DNA of 53,068 bases from assembly GCA_016927955.1 (NCBI GenBank), contig JAFGLR010000025.1, positions 1-53,068 of the forward strand, given 5' to 3'. Within the stretch, counting starts at the first letter, position 1. The number at the start of each line of letters is the position of its first letter. The notes beneath the pieces were generated by a model, which was not told where the DNA came from, searched no databases, and saw nothing but the letters and a program-made list of their open reading frames with translations. A program made the position numbers and the translations under genes. Shown here piece by piece: positions 32,942 to 41,923 of this stretch. Origin of the DNA: Dehalococcoidales bacterium. GTDB taxonomy: Bacteria > Chloroflexota > Dehalococcoidia > Dehalococcoidales > JAFGLR01.

Positions 32942-33103
32942 TTGAAAATAGCCCCTAGGAAAGTCTATTGTTCGAATTGTCAGAAACTGGTGAAAGGCGA
33001 GGAACAAAAAACCGAAGCTGTTATCCGTATTATGTGCCCCAAGTGCAAAAAACCGATTTACCTGAAAGACGGCTTTGAGTGGAGGTATATTAAAGAAGAG
33101 TAA
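32942..33103 (+). CDS. Small zinc-ribbon protein (53 aa), below the ORF-track size cutoff
   Basis: My own translation: MKIAPRKVYCSNCQKLVKGEEQKTEAVIRIMCPKCKKPIYLKDGFEWRYIKEE*. Two CxxC pairs. GAGGAGAG SD 5 nt before the TTG start. Its own hairpin terminator follows. Confidence 0.5.
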   Translation: MKIAPRKVYCSNCQKLVKGEEQKTEAVIRIMCPKCKKPIYLKDGFEWRYIKEE

Positions 33104-34717: not shown

Positions 34718-35303
34718 TTTACCCTTCCTTATCTATTAGCTAATTCAATTAATATTTTATTTATTTTCTCCGAGATAACTTTTTAGGATACTATCCGGTC
34801 CAATATCACATTCAAAAAAGTTTAACCTTATTAAACCGGTATAAAGCAGCAATAAAGGACACTGCAGCAATCTGTACCGGACTTTTTAATGGAAAGTATC
34901 AGTCTATATACCGCATTAATTACTTACACACAGGCATGCTGAGCGGTCTATAGAGCCTCTACTTATTAAGAGAAGTCATCTTGGAAACGGGTTCGGAACT
35001 TACACGTCGCTATCGGACGTTACGAAGGACAGGGGGCGGTTCTTTACAAAGAGCCATGTAGAGGAGAGAATTGATTTTAATAAAAACAACCGAAGCCAGT
35101 AAATAAACCAGCGAATCAAACTGAGAATTGCTCAATAAGACTGATATGCAATTGTTATGGATATACCCGTTATGCAACGCGTTCATTAGCTTATATAGTG
35201 ATATCCAAATTATACATAAGGAATCTAATTAGAGTCAAAGAGTAAGTTTAATGCAATTTCAAAAATAATAGTAAAATAAAATACGGTTATTCGGGTGGTA
35301 TCA

Positions 35304-36683
35304 TTACAGTCCTTTTATCATATAGGCACCCTTTAATAAATACCCCTCCGAGCCGTAATATTCCCGGGCACCGACGCCGCTTAACACGAGAATGCGGGAC
35401 AGGCCAAATTCCTCGCGGGCAATACGCTCTGCCTCGCTTAATAAAGCTTTGCCGTAGCCTTTGTGCTGGGCCGCCTCCGATTGGGCTGCTTTTAGCGGGA
35501 CTTCAGGGCCGAAAACATGCAACTCGCGAATGACAGCGGTTTTCTCGCCTGAATTCGCGCCGGGTAAAATCTGCCGGGAGTGAATTCTTAATCTCAATAG
35601 TCCGAATAAAGTCTCTTTCTCATCTTCGAAGGAAAGGAATATTTCCTTGCCTTCGGCAGCCTCATAGTCAGTTCTAACCAATTGCGGAGTGCTGATTTGC
35701 CATTTCGCCCGCCGCCGGTGGCCGTATTCCCGGCAACGGATGCAGCGGCATTGTATATTTTGCTCTTTCATTCTTTCACTCACGGGCTGGCGCAGGGTAT
35801 CTTTACAGCCGGCAGTGATGTATTTCGATGGGATATCCCTTAACACCCGGGCAATGCGGACATATTTAGGAACGATGGATTTAATCTTCACCGCCAGATC
35901 AACCATAATAGCTTTATCATAAGGCTGATAACGGCCTTCCTGATACCACCTCTCCAATTCCGTGTGCTCAACAACAGCCGTAGGATAAATTTTCAGGCCG
36001 TCCGGCTGAAACCGGGGGTCGGTAAATACCATTTTAGCCATCGCAAAGTCTTTTTCCGGTGACGAGCCGGGCAAGCCGGGCATGAGGTGATAATAGACCT
36101 TGAAACCATAATTACGCAGACGGGCGGTTGCCTCGACTACATCGGCTACGGTATGGCCCCGCCGGACCAATTTATAAATTTCATCGTCGGGAGCCTGTAC
36201 CCCCAGTTCGACACGGGTTGCGCCCCATTCCAGCATCCGTTCGACTTCCGCCTGACCGCACCAGTCCGGTCTCGTTTCAATACAGAGTCCGGTACAGCGA
36301 TTTTTAGCCGTCTCGTTAATCGTTTGGGCTTCAGCTAAAGAAGCAGATACCACACCGTTTAAAGCTTCATAAGTATCTTTAATAAACTGATATTGATAGT
36401 CCACCGGCGCGGCTAAAAAAGTCCCGCCCATTACAATTACCTCGATTTTATCCGTAGGATGCCCCATATCCGCCAGGACACCGACCCGCAACATAACCTG
36501 GCGTTTGACGTCGAATTCGCAAGCGCGGGCGCGGAAAACTGCCGGTGATTCCGGGGTATAACTCTGCGGTGAGTCAGAATAAGTGGGACAGTAAATGCAG
36601 GTGCCCGGGCAGCCCATCGGCTTAGCCATCACAGCAACCGGCGTAACGCCGGAAATAGTGCGGGTTACTTTTTTCAGTGCCAC
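35304..36683 (-). CDS. elp3: Elp3-type radical SAM / GNAT acetyltransferase (tRNA U34 cm5 modification enzyme homologue)
   Basis: 459 aa. N-terminal radical-SAM cluster motif CPGTCIYCP inside PVAVMAKPMGCPGTCIYCPT. A central Cys-rich segment (CRCIRCREYG). C-terminal GNAT motif QHKGYGKALL. This is the architecture of the compact bacterial/archaeal Elp3 (for example Dehalococcoides mccartyi Elp3). Confidence 0.85.
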   Translation of the reverse strand: MALKKVTRTISGVTPVAVMAKPMGCPGTCIYCPTYSDSPQSYTPESPAVFRARACEFDVKRQVMLRVGVLADMGHPTDKIEVIVMGGTFLAAPVDYQYQFIKDTYEALNGVVSASLAEAQTINETAKNRCTGLCIETRPDWCGQAEVERMLEWGATRVELGVQAPDDEIYKLVRRGHTVADVVEATARLRNYGFKVYYHLMPGLPGSSPEKDFAMAKMVFTDPRFQPDGLKIYPTAVVEHTELERWYQEGRYQPYDKAIMVDLAVKIKSIVPKYVRIARVLRDIPSKYITAGCKDTLRQPVSERMKEQNIQCRCIRCREYGHRRRAKWQISTPQLVRTDYEAAEGKEIFLSFEDEKETLFGLLRLRIHSRQILPGANSGEKTAVIRELHVFGPEVPLKAAQSEAAQHKGYGKALLSEAERIAREEFGLSRILVLSGVGAREYYGSEGYLLKGAYMIKGL

Positions 36684-36759
36684 GATTCCAGTTTAACACT
36701 CTGGTCTGGTATCACTCAAACGTGCTATATTATAGGGTATTCATTATTGAGGTAAGCTT

Positions 36760-37413
36760 TTGACGGAGAACGTTTTCGACCGCATCGCCCCGGGCTGGTA
36801 CGGCTTCCGGCACCACACGATATTCCGTACCGAACTCGAAACGCTGGCAAAAAAATGGCAACCGGGCAAACTTCTGAACATCGGCTGCGCCCACGGGCCG
36901 GATTTTATTCCCTTCAGGGAGCACTTCGAGTTATACGGTATCGACTCTTCGCCGGAGATGCTTCACTACGGGCGAAAATACGCCCGGAAATTCGATTTCG
37001 AACCGTTCTTAGAACTGGCTGATGCAACAAGCCTTCCTTTTCCGGATAATTCATTCGATTACGCAATAGCAGTAGCAACCTATCATCATCTGGAAGATAA
37101 AACAGCGAGGCTGAAGGCATTGAGGGAACTAAACCGGGTGCTGAAACCGGACGGCGAAGCATTCATCACGGTCTGGAACCACTGGCAACCGCGATTCTGG
37201 TTCAAGGGTTCGGATACCCTGGTGCCCTGGCGGATTAAAGAACAAGTAGTGCAGCGTTATTATCATCTATTCTCTTACGGAGAAATGGCAAAACTGGTAA
37301 AACAGGCCGGGTTACAGGTGATAAAATTATCTCCGGAAAGCTCGCACCGCTGTCCTATAAAATATTTTTCCCGGAATATATGCCTGCTGGTTAAAAAAAT
37401 ATCTAATAAATAG
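36760..37413 (+). CDS. Class I SAM-dependent methyltransferase, Trm9-like
   Basis: 217 aa. Blocks align by eye with yeast Trm9: VFDRIAPGWYGFRH (VYNEIAPHFSQTRY), LLNIGCAHG (motif I), SFDYAIAVATYHHL (FDFAISIAVVHHW), VLKPDGEAFITVWN, DTLVPW (DVFVPW), RYYHLFSYGEM (RFYHLYREGEL). TTG start with GAGGT 6 nt upstream. Confidence 0.65.
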   Translation: MTENVFDRIAPGWYGFRHHTIFRTELETLAKKWQPGKLLNIGCAHGPDFIPFREHFELYGIDSSPEMLHYGRKYARKFDFEPFLELADATSLPFPDNSFDYAIAVATYHHLEDKTARLKALRELNRVLKPDGEAFITVWNHWQPRFWFKGSDTLVPWRIKEQVVQRYYHLFSYGEMAKLVKQAGLQVIKLSPESSHRCPIKYFSRNICLLVKKISNK

Positions 37414-37422
37414 GAGGCTAAT

Positions 37423-37620
37423 ATGCCCGTAGTAATTGTGGAATGGTGGGAAGGCCGCACGGTCGGCCAGAAGAAAGAGGTCATCGAGGGTATCACAGAA
37501 GTATTGACCAGGGTAGGTATTCCACCGGAAGCGACGCATGTTATTATCAAGGACAACCCCAAGACCAACTGGGGCACCGGCGGCAAACAATGCGCGGAAA
37601 ATAGCCTTTCGAAAGATTGA
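37423..37620 (+). CDS. 4-oxalocrotonate tautomerase family protein
   Basis: 65 aa. Starts MPVV (catalytic Pro1 after Met removal). Beta-alpha-beta pattern EGRTVGQKKEVIEGITEVL. AGGAGG SD. 9 nt after the methyltransferase stop. Confidence 0.8.
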   Translation: MPVVIVEWWEGRTVGQKKEVIEGITEVLTRVGIPPEATHVIIKDNPKTNWGTGGKQCAENSLSKD

Positions 37621-37712
37621 CAGCAAGTCAATTCATCAAACAGAAAACTAGTCCAGGTGCCAAAACCCCATTAGTTAAGCTATAATGAAACTTACTTACT
37701 TGAGGTGAACCC

Positions 37713-38870
37713 ATGGATACTAATGAGTTAAAACAGACGATTATCAGTGATATCGAGGCAAGGAGCAAAGAGCTCAGCGAGCTGTGTTTGAAAATACACG
37801 CTAATCCTGAACTCGGAATGCATGAAGAAAAGGCTGCCGCGTGGCTGACGAAATATCTGGAAACAAACGGCTTTAAAGTAGAGCGGGGCATCTGTGATAT
37901 GCCCACCGCCTTCCGGGCGGTCTACGGAAAAGACAGGCCTGCCGTTGCCTTTCTGGCGGAATACGACGCCCTGCCGGAGGTCGGTCATGCCTGCGGTCAT
38001 AATATTATCGCAACATCGGCCGTCGGGGCGGGAGTGGCGGCAAAAATTGTTGCAGATAATTTCCCGGGCACGATACAGGTCATTGGAACGCCGGCTGAGG
38101 AATTAATCGGCGGGAAAATCGAAATGGCCAACAAAGCCGCATTTAACGATTTGGACGCAGCAATGCTGGTCCATCCCGGAATGCGGGACACGGCAACATC
38201 CAACGCACTGGCCTGTATCACACTGGATGTCGAGTTTTTCGGGAAATCGGCACATGCTGCGGCAGAACCGGAACTCGGCCGGAACGCATTAGAAGCGATG
38301 ATATTGGCTTTTAATGCAATAGACGCTTTAAGACAACACATCAAACCTGTTTCTCGTATCCACGGTATTATTACGAACGGCGGGTCGGCTGCCAACGTAG
38401 TACCGGAGCACAGTGCCGGCTCCTTCCTGGTCCGCGCCGAGGAAGATACTTACTTAGATGAACTGAAACAGCGGGTCCTGGACTGTTTTATCGGAGCGGC
38501 CATGGCTACCGGAACCCGTCTGGAACACCGTTGGAGCCACCATTACGCTCCGATGCGTAATAATAATGCCTTGGCCAATATTTTTCTGGAAAATATGACC
38601 GCTCTAGGACGAAACGTGCGCCCGGAGGGAGATAAAGCGATAGGCAGCACGGATATGGGTAACGTCAGTCAGGTAGTGCCGGCAATTCATCCGTTTGTCG
38701 CGATAGCTCCGCTTAATACTGCTTCTCATTCACCGGAATTCGCTGCAGCCGCCGCTTCCGAAATAGGTATAAAAGGCATGCTGGACGCCGCAAAAACAAT
38801 GGCTATGACGGCAGCCGATTTACTATCAAATCCCAAATTAATGGATCAAATCAAAGTCGAGTTCAAATAA
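37713..38870 (+). CDS. M20-family metallohydrolase (amidohydrolase/peptidase M20D-like)
   Basis: 385 aa. The ELGMHEEKAA...AEYDALPEVGHACGHN...GTPAEE motifs are typical of M20 amidohydrolases. Confidence 0.85.
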   Translation: MDTNELKQTIISDIEARSKELSELCLKIHANPELGMHEEKAAAWLTKYLETNGFKVERGICDMPTAFRAVYGKDRPAVAFLAEYDALPEVGHACGHNIIATSAVGAGVAAKIVADNFPGTIQVIGTPAEELIGGKIEMANKAAFNDLDAAMLVHPGMRDTATSNALACITLDVEFFGKSAHAAAEPELGRNALEAMILAFNAIDALRQHIKPVSRIHGIITNGGSAANVVPEHSAGSFLVRAEEDTYLDELKQRVLDCFIGAAMATGTRLEHRWSHHYAPMRNNNALANIFLENMTALGRNVRPEGDKAIGSTDMGNVSQVVPAIHPFVAIAPLNTASHSPEFAAAAASEIGIKGMLDAAKTMAMTAADLLSNPKLMDQIKVEFK

Positions 38871-38872
38871 TC

Positions 38873-39859
38873 ATGGCTACAATAGGCATTCCGCGAGCTT
38901 TAGCTTATTATCAATACTACCCGATGTGGCGGACTTTCTTCGAAAAGCTCGGCTCAGAAGTCGTCACTTCGCCGCCGACCACACAGAAAATGCTGGCGGA
39001 CGGAGCAGGCAGAGTTGTCGCTGATACCTGCCTGCCGGCGAAAGTCTATCTGGGACACGTTATTTCACTGGCAGACAAATGCGATTACATGTTTATTCCC
39101 GTTATCCGCAGCGTGAAACGAAAAGCATATAATTGTGCCAAATTTCTCGGCCTGCCGGATATGACCCGGGCGGTCGTACCTGAATGTCCGCCGATTCTAG
39201 AAATCGATTTCGATGTCAATAAAGGTGCGAATACTATATACAAATTAATTTATGAGATAGCTAAGCCTTTCTCCAAAAATAAAAGCCATGTTAAGCAGGC
39301 TGCGATGAGTGCATGGGAAACTCATCTTCATTACCGCCAGCTAATGGTAAATGAGAAACTCACCCCTCCTCAGGCACTAGGTCTGCTGTACGAAAATGAA
39401 AGGCCCGATTTAACGGAGGATAACCGGGTAACTATCGGACTTATCGGACACCACTACCTGCTCTACGATGAACTGGTGAACCAACGGCTAATACCGCGCT
39501 TAAAAACCGCCGGGTGCCGTATTGTTACTCCGGAAATGGCCGATGCGGAAAAGCTCGAAGCGGCGACTCAACGACTCGCAAAACGGCCTTATTGGACATG
39601 GGAAGAAGAAGTCATCGGCGCGGGAGGCTATTACCTGGAAAATGAAAATGTAGATGGGATTATCGGGGTGGCCGCCTTCGGCTGCGGGCCTGACTCGTTA
39701 ATGATGGACTCAGTACACCGCGAGGCAACCAGGTTAAGAAACACTCCTTTTATGAATCTTACATTAGAAGAGCATACCGCCGAGGCAGGGATAATCACCC
39801 GGTTGGAGGCTTTCCTGGACATGATTTTCCGCAAACAGCGGAGGTTAACATGCGCGTAA
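38873..39859 (+). CDS. BCR/HAD-superfamily subunit, DUF2229 / acyl-CoA dehydratase activase-related type (subunit 1)
   Basis: 328 aa. N-terminus IGIPRALAYYQYYPMWRTFFEKLG, DTCLPAKV, AAFGCGPD. I recognise these from the C-terminal halves of the large CoA-substrate-specific enzyme activase proteins. 2-nt gap after the M20 gene. Confidence 0.7.
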   Translation: MATIGIPRALAYYQYYPMWRTFFEKLGSEVVTSPPTTQKMLADGAGRVVADTCLPAKVYLGHVISLADKCDYMFIPVIRSVKRKAYNCAKFLGLPDMTRAVVPECPPILEIDFDVNKGANTIYKLIYEIAKPFSKNKSHVKQAAMSAWETHLHYRQLMVNEKLTPPQALGLLYENERPDLTEDNRVTIGLIGHHYLLYDELVNQRLIPRLKTAGCRIVTPEMADAEKLEAATQRLAKRPYWTWEEEVIGAGGYYLENENVDGIIGVAAFGCGPDSLMMDSVHREATRLRNTPFMNLTLEEHTAEAGIITRLEAFLDMIFRKQRRLTCA

Positions 39860-40938
39860 CTATACCTCAAATGGGCAATTTGTATATCCCTGTGACAACC
39901 CTGTTTCGGGAATTGAATGTGGATATGGTTATGCCGCCGATGAACAGTCAGCGCACGATGTCCTTAGGCACTAAGTATTCTCCGGAAGGATTATGCATAC
40001 CTTTTAAGTTGACGCTGGGAAACTTCATCGAAGCGGCAGAGCTTGGGGCAGATACTTTTATAATGGCGAGCGGTTACAACACTTGCCGCCTGGGCATTTA
40101 CGCTAAAACCCAGGAGAAAATTTTACAGAATCTGGGTTACCAGATGGAAATGATAGAAATGGGCGTGTCCGAAAAGAAGTTTGCCGGCTTTTTGAAAATG
40201 GTTAAAAGGCTCGCGAATAACGCTCCCTGGCAGAGAATCTTCCAGGCTTTCCGTTTCGGTATCGCCAAGATGGATATCACGGACAAAATAGAGCGGGAAA
40301 TGCAGAGTATCCGGGCACGCGAAGCGGTAAAAGGCACCGCCTTCCGGACTTATAATAATGCTCTTAAAGCTATTGATGAAGCTGATAGTATGAGAAAACT
40401 AAAAATGCTTAAAAAAGACTATCTCGAACAGCTGGGGCAGATACCCTTAAACGGAAATAAACAACCGCTGAAAGTATGTATTGTCGGTGAATTCTACGTG
40501 GTCTTAGAGCCCTTCTCCAATCTGGACGTGGAAAATGAACTGGGAAAGCTGGGCGTGGAAGTAACCCGCAGCCTGTATATCTCCGAATGGCTGAAATTCG
40601 GGCTGTTTTTCGGGGTGCTGAAGAAATTCCGCAAGGACAAGAACGCGATATTACACGAGGCGGCAATGCCTTATCTTAAACGCGACATCGGCGGCGAAGG
40701 CTGGGAGACGGTGGGACATAAAGTGCTCGGCGGAGAGCATTACGAAGGGCTGGTGCATTTAGCTCCTTTCACATGTATGCCGGAAATTGTCGCTCAAAAT
40801 ATTATGTCGTCTACTAAAGAAAACATTCCGGTATTGACCCTTTTCTGTGACGAGCAGATGGGCAAACCGGGGATGCTTACGCGAGTGGAAGCCTTCGTCG
40901 ATTTGTTGAAAAGACGGCGCGAAAAGTATAACAATTAA
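39850..40938 (+). CDS. BCR/HAD-superfamily subunit, HgdAB/DUF2229-like (subunit 2)
   Basis: 362 aa. N-terminus VTIPQMGNLYIPV..., EGLCIPFKLTLGN, NTCRLG, APFTCMPE. 10-nt overlap with subunit 1. Confidence 0.7.
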   Translation: MRVTIPQMGNLYIPVTTLFRELNVDMVMPPMNSQRTMSLGTKYSPEGLCIPFKLTLGNFIEAAELGADTFIMASGYNTCRLGIYAKTQEKILQNLGYQMEMIEMGVSEKKFAGFLKMVKRLANNAPWQRIFQAFRFGIAKMDITDKIEREMQSIRAREAVKGTAFRTYNNALKAIDEADSMRKLKMLKKDYLEQLGQIPLNGNKQPLKVCIVGEFYVVLEPFSNLDVENELGKLGVEVTRSLYISEWLKFGLFFGVLKKFRKDKNAILHEAAMPYLKRDIGGEGWETVGHKVLGGEHYEGLVHLAPFTCMPEIVAQNIMSSTKENIPVLTLFCDEQMGKPGMLTRVEAFVDLLKRRREKYNN

Positions 40939-40957
40939 TTTGAATTCAAGGGGAGCT

Positions 40958-41923
40958 ATGGAAGCATATTTAGGTATTGATGTAGGTTCGGTTACAACAA
41001 AGTTTGCCGCTCTGGACCGTGATGATAAGCTACTGGCTCATCTGTATTTGCCGACACAGGGTAAGCCAATCGAAACCGTGCAGGGCGGGCTGAAAAAAAT
41101 CCGGCAAGAGCTCTCTCCTGACACGGAAATCTGCGGTGCGGCAACTACCGGCAGCGCCCGATATTTAGCGGGTGTGATAGTTGGGGCCGACCTGGTTAAG
41201 AACGAGATTACCAGTCATGCCGTTGCCACACTACACTATTATCCTGACGTACAAACGGTTATTGAAATCGGCGGGCAGGACAGCAAGATCATTATCATCC
41301 GTGATGAAATAGTTACGGATTTCGGTATGAATACAGTTTGTGCCGCCGGCACCGGCAGTTTCCTCGACCACCAGGCACAGCGGCTTAATTTGAGTATTCA
41401 GGAATTCAGCGAACGTGCCCTGACTAGTAAAACTCCGGTACGGATTGCCGGACGGTGTACTGTCTTCGGCGAATCGGATATGATTCACAAGCAGCAAATG
41501 GGACACCGTATCGAGGATATTATATACGGACTATGTCAGGCACTGGTACGGAACTACTTGAACAACGTCGGATTAGGTAAAGAAATCAAACCGCCAGTGG
41601 TATTTCAGGGTGGGGTCGCCTTCAATAAAGGCATTATCAAGGCCTTCCGCGAAGAACTCAAGACCGATTTGATTGTCCCCGAACATCACGAAGTAATGGG
41701 AGCCATCGGGGCGGCATTACTGGTACATGAGGAAATAACGCAATCGAAAAATAAAAGTACGTTTAAGGGGTTCGGCATCAGCGATGTTCAATACCAGACC
41801 TCATCGTTCGAATGCAAGTCCTGCCCTAACCTATGCGAAATCGCCCAATTATCAGTTAAAAATAAGGTACTGGCGAGGTGGGGAGGCCGGTGCGATTTAT
41901 GGGAAAGAACTACCGGTGAATGA
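40958..41923 (+). CDS. BadF/BadG/BcrA/BcrD-type ATPase (HgdC-like activator) with a Cys-rich C-terminal tail
   Basis: Actin-fold phosphate-1 motif LGIDVGSVTTK. Cluster-ligand contexts VCAAGTGSFLD and RCTVFGESD. GGVAFN. C-terminal FECKSCPNLCE...GRCDLWE. ATG at 40958 is preferred (GGGGAG SD) over the track's TTG at 40940. Confidence 0.85.
   Translation: MEAYLGIDVGSVTTKFAALDRDDKLLAHLYLPTQGKPIETVQGGLKKIRQELSPDTEICGAATTGSARYLAGVIVGADLVKNEITSHAVATLHYYPDVQTVIEIGGQDSKIIIIRDEIVTDFGMNTVCAAGTGSFLDHQAQRLNLSIQEFSERALTSKTPVRIAGRCTVFGESDMIHKQQMGHRIEDIIYGLCQALVRNYLNNVGLGKEIKPPVVFQGGVAFNKGIIKAFREELKTDLIVPEHHEVMGAIGAALLVHEEITQSKNKSTFKGFGISDVQYQTSSFECKSCPNLCEIAQLSVKNKVLARWGGRCDLWERTTGE

Follow-up and report, generated by a model that had tools for sequence, protein, structure and literature searches.

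Elp3 and a Trm9-like methyltransferase encoded head to head in Dehalococcoidales and other bacteria: a predicted bacterial route to mcm5U34

In bacteria, MnmE/MnmG, complemented by MnmC, makes 5-carboxymethylaminomethyluridine (cmnm5U) or 5-methylaminomethyluridine (mnm5U) at the wobble position (U34) of tRNAs, and CmoM methyl-esterifies 5-carboxymethoxyuridine (cmo5U). A stretch of 53,068 nucleotides (nt) from an uncultured Dehalococcoidales bacterium of the Chloroflexota (contig JAFGLR010000025.1, assembly GCA_016927955.1; hereafter referred to as the window) encodes a stand-alone Elp3 and, divergently from it, a Trm9-like methyltransferase, and this gene pair is the subject of the present analysis. 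The bacterial enzymes named above and the pair would have in common an xm5 side chain on the wobble U34 and an optional 2-thiolation by MnmA, and CmoM likewise esterifies a carboxylated wobble uridine. However, MnmE/MnmG works through GTPase and flavin adenine dinucleotide chemistry with glycine, whereas the pair would depend on radical S-adenosylmethionine (SAM) chemistry and acetyl-CoA, and MnmE/MnmG has no homology to the two genes of the pair.

The pathway leading to 5-methoxycarbonylmethyluridine (mcm5U) is established or well predicted in archaea and eukaryotes (PMC2584109; PMC6144793, van Tran et al. 2018; PMC7694415), and both eukaryotic and archaeal Trm9 require Trm112, a small zinc-binding activator (5CM2 complex; PMC6144793). 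In Sulfolobus the genes for Elp3 and Trm9 are known to cluster, which has been taken as functional evidence in archaea (PMC2584109, Grosjean et al. 2008). As for bacteria, a review of Elongator confines Elp3 to Dehalococcoides (PMC7663514), and a review of Trm112 reports no detectable bacterial homologues of the Trm112-dependent methyltransferases (PMC5372719). A partner methyltransferase is not mentioned in the papers and reviews on the Elp3 of Dehalococcoides mccartyi (DmcElp3; PMC6367351, PMC7663514), the 2016 structure paper lying outside that scope, and full-text searches for Elp3 with Trm9, MnmG, Patescibacteria or Chloroflexota returned no paper on a bacterial Elp3-Trm9 module.

Judged by their sequences, the two genes in the window are bacterial members of this known enzyme pair and pathway, and such members are far more widespread than one would gather from the literature. 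The arrangement is similar to that of Sulfolobus solfataricus in that a stand-alone Elp3, without Elp1, 2 and 4-6, has a Trm9 homologue encoded beside it, and in both cases the gene neighbourhood is taken to point to a shared U34 pathway. It differs in being bacterial (Dehalococcoidia and Patescibacteria) and consistently head to head, and in that binding to Trm112 was shown for the archaeal Trm9, whereas the bacterial pair is known here from sequence. The pair probably represents a two-step U34 pathway of the archaeal/eukaryotic type that operates in bacteria, with mcm5U as its product.

The two enzymes encoded in the window

The elp3 gene occupies positions 35304..36683 on the minus strand, has a GTG start and encodes a protein of 459 amino acids (aa), annotated as a stand-alone radical-SAM/GNAT tRNA U34 carboxymethyl-forming enzyme of the compact form. 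A preceding examination of this DNA without database searches (the sequence-only reading) had recognised an Elp3 by the motifs CPGTCIYCP and QHKGYGKALL, and this identification is confirmed by the sequence, Pfam, TIGR01211 and a match to the PDB entry 5L7J. The CX4CX2C motif of the radical-SAM enzymes is present as GCPGTCIYCP and the GNAT motif QHKGYGKALL lies within AAQHKGYGKALL; the Pfam domains Radical_SAM, Radical_SAM_C and Acetyltransf_1 are all found in one chain, and with 574 bits the protein exceeds the cut-off of 350 for the NCBIfam model TIGR01211 (ELP3). The closest PDB entry, D. mccartyi Elp3 5L7J (E = 8e-196), matches end to end over residues 3-458, and the equivalents of its residues K77, K193, E386 and Y441 are all kept. 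Three domains, a score above the curated threshold and the retention of the active-site residues place the predicted protein in the Elp3 family. It has the same 459-aa compact architecture as DmcElp3 (5L7J/5L7L/6IA6), with Fe-S and acetyl-CoA residues in common, and, as in DmcElp3, the basic extension that archaeal and eukaryotic Elp3 carry at the N-terminus is absent; Elp3 proteins of Dehalococcoidia are known to be without this tRNA-binding extension (PMC6367351). The host, an uncultured Dehalococcoidales bacterium, is another species.

The trm9-like gene (36760..37413, plus strand) has a TTG start with GAGG standing 6-7 nt ahead of it, and encodes a class I SAM-dependent methyltransferase of 217 aa, which is predicted to convert 5-carboxymethyluridine (cm5U) at U34 to mcm5U34. 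The divergent intergenic spacer between the two genes (36684..36759, assigned to no strand) measures exactly 76 bp as read from the sequence, in agreement with the distance noted in the sequence-only reading. The methyltransferase shares 79% identity with its nearest relative in species-representative genomes. Its SAM motif reads NIGCAHG, D62, the acidic residue that ends strand beta-2 (D72 in yeast), is invariant in the family, and its Pfam matches are to the generic models Methyltransf_11/25/23. More specific information comes from structures. In a phmmer search with the single sequence, the top PDB match is Trm9 of Yarrowia (5cm2_Z; E = 1.9e-17 over query residues 39-193; runner-up 3.9e-12), which also ranks first in a search with the family profile (E = 5.7e-21; runner-up 7.4e-17) and is the top-ranked PDB match whose alignment spans the C-terminal VPW and RYYHL blocks. 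When the protein was modelled with AlphaFold2 (predicted local distance difference test score, pLDDT, 91.8), the same chain was the top match in Foldseek, with a template modelling (TM) score of 0.83 normalised to the target and a root-mean-square deviation of 2.8 A. The identity between the window methyltransferase and Yarrowia Trm9 is about 26-32%. The blocks IAP, FDxAIxxAxxHH, VPW and RYYHLF..GE, in which a likeness to Trm9 had earlier been perceived, are real and are aligned by HMMER to 5cm2_Z.

A hidden Markov model (HMM) was built from the window protein plus 121 representatives of prokaryotic clusters, leaving out all eukaryotic sequences, and full-length fungal Trm9 proteins, named tRNA (carboxymethyluridine(34)-5-O)-methyltransferase in their source, were aligned to it. 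Family members score 166-296 bits on this model, the named fungal Trm9 proteins 148-189 bits and generic methyltransferases sharing the SAM-binding motif 70-134 bits. The crystallised Yarrowia fragment alone gives an ambiguous 110 bits because it is without both termini, and it was the full-length fungal proteins that settled the point. A reciprocal search with the Yarrowia fragment against open reading frames (ORFs) of at least 100 aa in 0.94 Mb of related loci retrieved family members only, which says little because no further methyltransferases are detectable in those flanks. Automatic names given by IMG to the close bacterial homologues are divided, some being 'TRM9' and others 'UbiE'. On the evidence of the profiles and the modelled fold, the methyltransferase is assigned to the Trm9 family, and of all characterised methyltransferases Trm9 appears to be the closest to it.

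The assignment can be followed to individual residues. In yeast Trm9, mutagenesis has shown that R29, D72, H116, W145, W168, R241, Y243 and N271 are needed for methylation of cm5U, and docking places H115 and Y18 in contact with cm5U (PMC4678810, Letoquart et al.). The HMM alignment pairs the window residues F6, R17, D62, H109 and H110 with Yarrowia Y29, R40, D83, H126 and H127, and W139, W157, R166, Y168 and N206 with W156, W179, R192, Y194 and N222, the Yarrowia positions being numbered as in PMC4678810. The mapped positions show little or no variation across the bacterial family. The equivalents of R17, H109, W139, W157, R166, Y168 and N206 are kept in 101-121 of the 123 sequences compared (the Yarrowia fragment and 122 representatives of prokaryotic clusters), and H110 is the least conserved of the Trm9 functional positions (80/123). 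The replacement of Y29 by F6 is the sole change among the mapped positions. The Trm9-like character thus holds at experimentally defined active-site residues, beyond the alignment by eye on which it had first been proposed. In relation to the methyltransferase domain of Trm9/ALKBH8 (5CM2), the window protein has the class I fold, with the best match in both sequence and fold; yeast R29, D72, H115, H116, W145, W168, R241, Y243 and N271 map to it one to one; its size is near that of the compact fungal Trm9; and it has a genomic tie to Elp3. The differences are its bacterial origin, the lack of a Trm112 found nearby, the phenylalanine in place of Yarrowia Y29 and a stretch from the RYYHL block to the C-terminal asparagine that is longer by about 10 residues.

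Linkage of the two genes across bacterial lineages

When one genome was scanned for each species, relatives of the methyltransferase were found in 372 genomes, and the best 80 of these were examined for gene order. The best 80 are bins of Dehalococcoidales or Dehalococcoidia, save a few bins labelled as other taxa on short contigs; together with eight metagenomic loci they make a Chloroflexota set of 88 loci, 82 of which are assessable in having enough upstream sequence. An elp3 gene lies upstream on the opposite strand in 81 of the 82, within 600 bp in 77, and over the 81 loci the tblastn matches to the two genes end a median of 128 bp apart. L013 (CAZHRL010000142.1), on a 3.6-kb contig with 2.9 kb of sequence upstream of the Trm9-like gene, is alone among the assessable Dehalococcoidales loci in being without Elp3, and may represent a rearrangement or a mis-assembly.

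Other neighbours of the pair are not conserved across the Chloroflexota loci; asd was seen once, M20 and DUF2229 genes recur together only in the relatives L001 and L005, and L060 has a DUF2229 gene on the upstream side. The methyltransferase gene of a second Chloroflexota clade (40-46% identity) is monocistronic and is followed by a convergent GGDEF/HD gene, with elp3 still divergent. The sequence-only reading had cautioned that the methyltransferase also heads a downstream operon and that its link to Elp3 could be coincidental; this reservation falls because the pair stays divergent where the downstream genes differ, both in the monocistronic clade and among the neighbours found in Patescibacteria, described next.

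A further 80 metagenomic loci were picked by the generic SAM-binding motif alone. They comprise 41 loci with the Trm9 signature, 35 with generic methyltransferases, two with truncated signature-bearing ORFs and two without a scorable ORF. When only loci with 1.5 kb or more of sequence on the upstream side are counted, Elp3 is encoded within about 2 kb in 28 of 35 signature-positive loci, head to head in 26 of them, and in none of 23 loci with generic methyltransferases (Fisher p = 2.4e-10). The Elp3 proteins of the distant metagenomic loci share 39-52% identity with that of the window. Genes neighbouring these loci encode HrcA, TsaE, YidC, IF-3, SmpB, MurI, Fmt, RuvA and SecA, and exact-sequence look-ups returned a Patescibacteria group bacterium, Ca. 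Magasanikbacteria and Ca. Paceibacterota; the distant loci are bacterial, and several belong to Patescibacteria. The pair sits there amid neighbours quite unlike those in Chloroflexota, and the Elp3-Trm9 linkage is conserved across lineages, including very distant bacteria. The synteny for which the sequence-only reading had called is present, in 81/82 assessable Chloroflexota loci and 28/35 metagenomic loci with the signature. Its statement that Dehalococcoides is the known bacterial holder of Elp3 is superseded, Elp3 not being confined to that genus in view of the 372 genomes with methyltransferase relatives and the pairs in Patescibacteria.

The Elp3 ORFs of the metagenomic loci L100-L158 are 504-601 aa long and carry the basic N-terminal extension of about 60-90 residues typical of archaeal and eukaryotic Elp3. 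With the extension present in Elp3 of the Patescibacteria type and absent in that of Dehalococcoidia, two bacterial Elp3 architectures can be distinguished, each paired with a Trm9-like gene. In a contig of Ca. Paceibacterota, mnmA, the gene for tRNA 2-thiouridine(34) synthase (L127:1897-2979, minus strand; 373 bits on NF001138), abuts elp3 (L127:2981-4555, minus strand) on the same strand, and elp3 in turn diverges from the Trm9-like gene. The position of mnmA ties the module to U34 and suggests that this arrangement is a module for the 2-thiolated derivative, mcm5s2U.

Proposed pathway and competing explanations

In the proposed first step, stand-alone Elp3, drawing on acetyl-CoA and its radical-SAM [4Fe-4S] cluster, would carboxymethylate U34 at C5 to form cm5U, as expected from the 5L7J-level homology and the published mechanism of Elp3. 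In the second, the Trm9-family enzyme would methyl-esterify the carboxyl group with SAM to yield mcm5U34, or mcm5s2U34 where MnmA adds sulphur. Since conservation with Yarrowia and yeast Trm9 is residue for residue, the R17/H110 pair is expected to position the carboxylate, and H109, W139 and N206 to recognise the uracil ring. The shared 76-bp spacer, which presumably holds a shared or bidirectional promoter region, would allow co-regulation of both genes; a scan of 35100-37800, including the spacer, for promoter and terminator consensus sequences found nothing better than in shuffled sequence. For the bacterial pair we infer a tRNA substrate, an mcm5U product and independence from Trm112. A wider proposal is that Dehalococcoidia and several lineages of Patescibacteria decode with mcm5U/mcm5s2U by means of a stand-alone Elp3 and a Trm112-free Trm9, or, in many Dehalococcoidales, a Trm9 with a hitherto undescribed 72-aa zinc-ribbon partner encoded close downstream (see below), and that the pair might replace MnmE/MnmG; the chances of this appear to us evenly balanced. 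Neither mnmE nor mnmG is encoded within the window.

Several points weigh against a pathway of this type. Neither Trm112 (PF03966) nor its motif was found with Pfam and a scan of ORFs of at least 35 aa, covering the window and the flanks of 168 related loci. With F6 in place of Y29, the carboxylate loses a hydrogen bond that has been proposed for it. DmcElp3 is very weakly active in vitro, with weak hydrolysis of acetyl-CoA and reduced affinity for tRNA, and a 2020 review from the laboratory of the Elp3 structure states that there is no evidence for cm5U-derived (xcm5U) nucleosides in bacteria with Elp3 (both PMC7663514). The margins by which 5cm2_Z leads other class I methyltransferases in Foldseek are small. 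In a neighbour-joining tree (Kimura distances), the Trm9-like proteins and fungal Trm9 fall together on one side of 32 generic methyltransferases with bootstrap values of 25-43%, so weak that placement among Trm9 is consistent but not established. With a tree so poorly supported, the earlier suggestion that both steps of the pathway were acquired together is not shown.

Some of these points would equally suit a paralogue from the Trm9 family that acts together with Elp3 but yields an end product other than mcm5U, differing in the side chain, the position or the RNA. Such a paralogue could account for the phenylalanine in place of Y29, for the failure to find Trm112 in the window or the related-locus flanks, for an Elp3 that in Dehalococcoidia is without the N-terminal tRNA-binding extension (PMC6367351) and weak in vitro (PMC7663514), and for the tautomerase-family and zinc-ribbon genes that accompany the methyltransferase (30/88 loci), neither being known from the canonical pathway. 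However, all the residues needed for methylation of cm5U are kept, including H109, W139 and N206, which would read the uracil, and R17, H110 and R166, which would bind the carboxylate, and cm5U is the simplest substrate for such a pocket; a different product is therefore considered unlikely. The weak hydrolysis of acetyl-CoA and lowered tRNA affinity of DmcElp3 in vitro (PMC7663514) could also mean that the genes are relic or low-activity copies of an archaeal transfer, adding little while MnmE/MnmG still modifies U34. Against this stand the intact ORFs and the invariant catalytic residues over hundreds of species-level genomes, including those of the streamlined Patescibacteria, which imply purifying selection on function and make a relic distinctly improbable.

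An explanation that dispenses with tRNA altogether would see in the methyltransferase an unrelated small-molecule enzyme of the UbiE/MenG type, its adjacency to elp3 being an inherited gene order without function. Many homologues do carry the source labels 'UbiE' or 'class I SAM-dependent methyltransferase', and the best NCBIfam matches are to UbiE/MenG models, but these matches score far under the cut-off (46 vs 158 bits) and cover the SAM-binding half only. Gene order can likewise be inherited inside one order of bacteria, but the pair persists though its other neighbours have changed, it recurs across Chloroflexota and Patescibacteria with Elp3 proteins of 39-52% identity, and Elp3 is beside none of the 23 control generic methyltransferases. 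This explanation is already strongly disfavoured and in our estimate has very little chance of being correct.

If the pair does lead to mcm5U, its Trm9 can work without Trm112 or with a new partner, and would be a simple enzyme of bacterial origin on which to study structure and mechanism in a family with ties to human disease (ALKBH8, TRMT9B). It would also be necessary to look again at the history of U34 modification, the choice lying between an ancient module and transfer among archaea, Patescibacteria and Chloroflexota, and, should Elp3-Trm9 replace MnmE/MnmG, the module would be no hallmark of archaea and eukaryotes. The prediction of mcm5U can be tested directly in the cultivable Dehalococcoides or Dehalogenimonas.

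Accessory genes and surroundings of the pair

A conserved 72-aa protein with a CPxC...CWKC zinc ribbon (four cysteines) and a charged C-terminal helix is encoded near the Trm9-like gene in 30 of the 88 Chloroflexota loci, and in 20 of those 30 its gene starts at most 150 nt downstream of the methyltransferase. The gene is represented by L002:6721-6939 (plus strand), with homologues at, for example, L011:2434-2646, L014:2286-2498 and L047:8721-8930, and is not present in the window. A sequence relationship to Trm112 or Kti11 was considered and rejected: all 22 members gave generic zinc-ribbon matches only with Pfam, and no Trm112 chain appeared in a profile search of the PDB up to E = 10. The protein could be a candidate partner of the methyltransferase (Trm112-like) or of Elp3 (Kti11-like), or could be unrelated to both. 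The window itself has, upstream of asd, an ORF of 53 aa with a CxxC...CPKC pattern (32942-33103, plus strand), whose matches are weak and to generic zinc ribbons alone; it is neither a Trm112 nor homologous to the 72-aa protein.

Immediately downstream of the trm9-like gene, beginning 9 bp past its end, is a gene of the 4-oxalocrotonate-tautomerase family (37423..37620, plus strand; 65 aa; Pfam Tautomerase, E = 6.8e-15), which is probably co-transcribed with it. A tautomerase homologue is found downstream of the methyltransferase at varying distances in 30/88 Chloroflexota loci, and it may or may not be part of the functional module. The order of the genes that follow it in the window is M20 amidohydrolase, two DUF2229 genes, a BcrAD/BadFG-type ATPase and plsX.

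On the other side of the pair, the 586 bp downstream of elp3 (34718-35303) contain no ORF longer than 58 aa and give no Rfam match, and a strong sigma-70-like promoter match, TTGACT-18-TATAAT (11/12), is found inside this stretch on the minus strand (35238-35209). An Rfam scan of the entire window yielded no matches and no tRNA genes were detected in it; outside the genes described here it consists of ordinary chromosomal DNA.

The two DUF2229 genes and the ATPase gene that follows them (38873-41923, plus strand), a few kb downstream of the pair, resemble 2-hydroxyacyl-CoA-dehydratase activase. Although the cluster is missing from most Dehalococcoidales loci, a similar DUF2229-like pair occurs downstream of the Elp3-Trm9 pair in three metagenomic loci of the Patescibacteria-type group, whose taxonomy is putative (L109:9690-12596, L110:9219-11252 and L135:10399-12417), the ATPase being visible in L109; these clusters were judged from N-terminal sequences alone. 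The proximity of such a cluster to a radical-SAM enzyme may be a coincidence, and an ATP-driven electron-transfer system at this position is worth a look.

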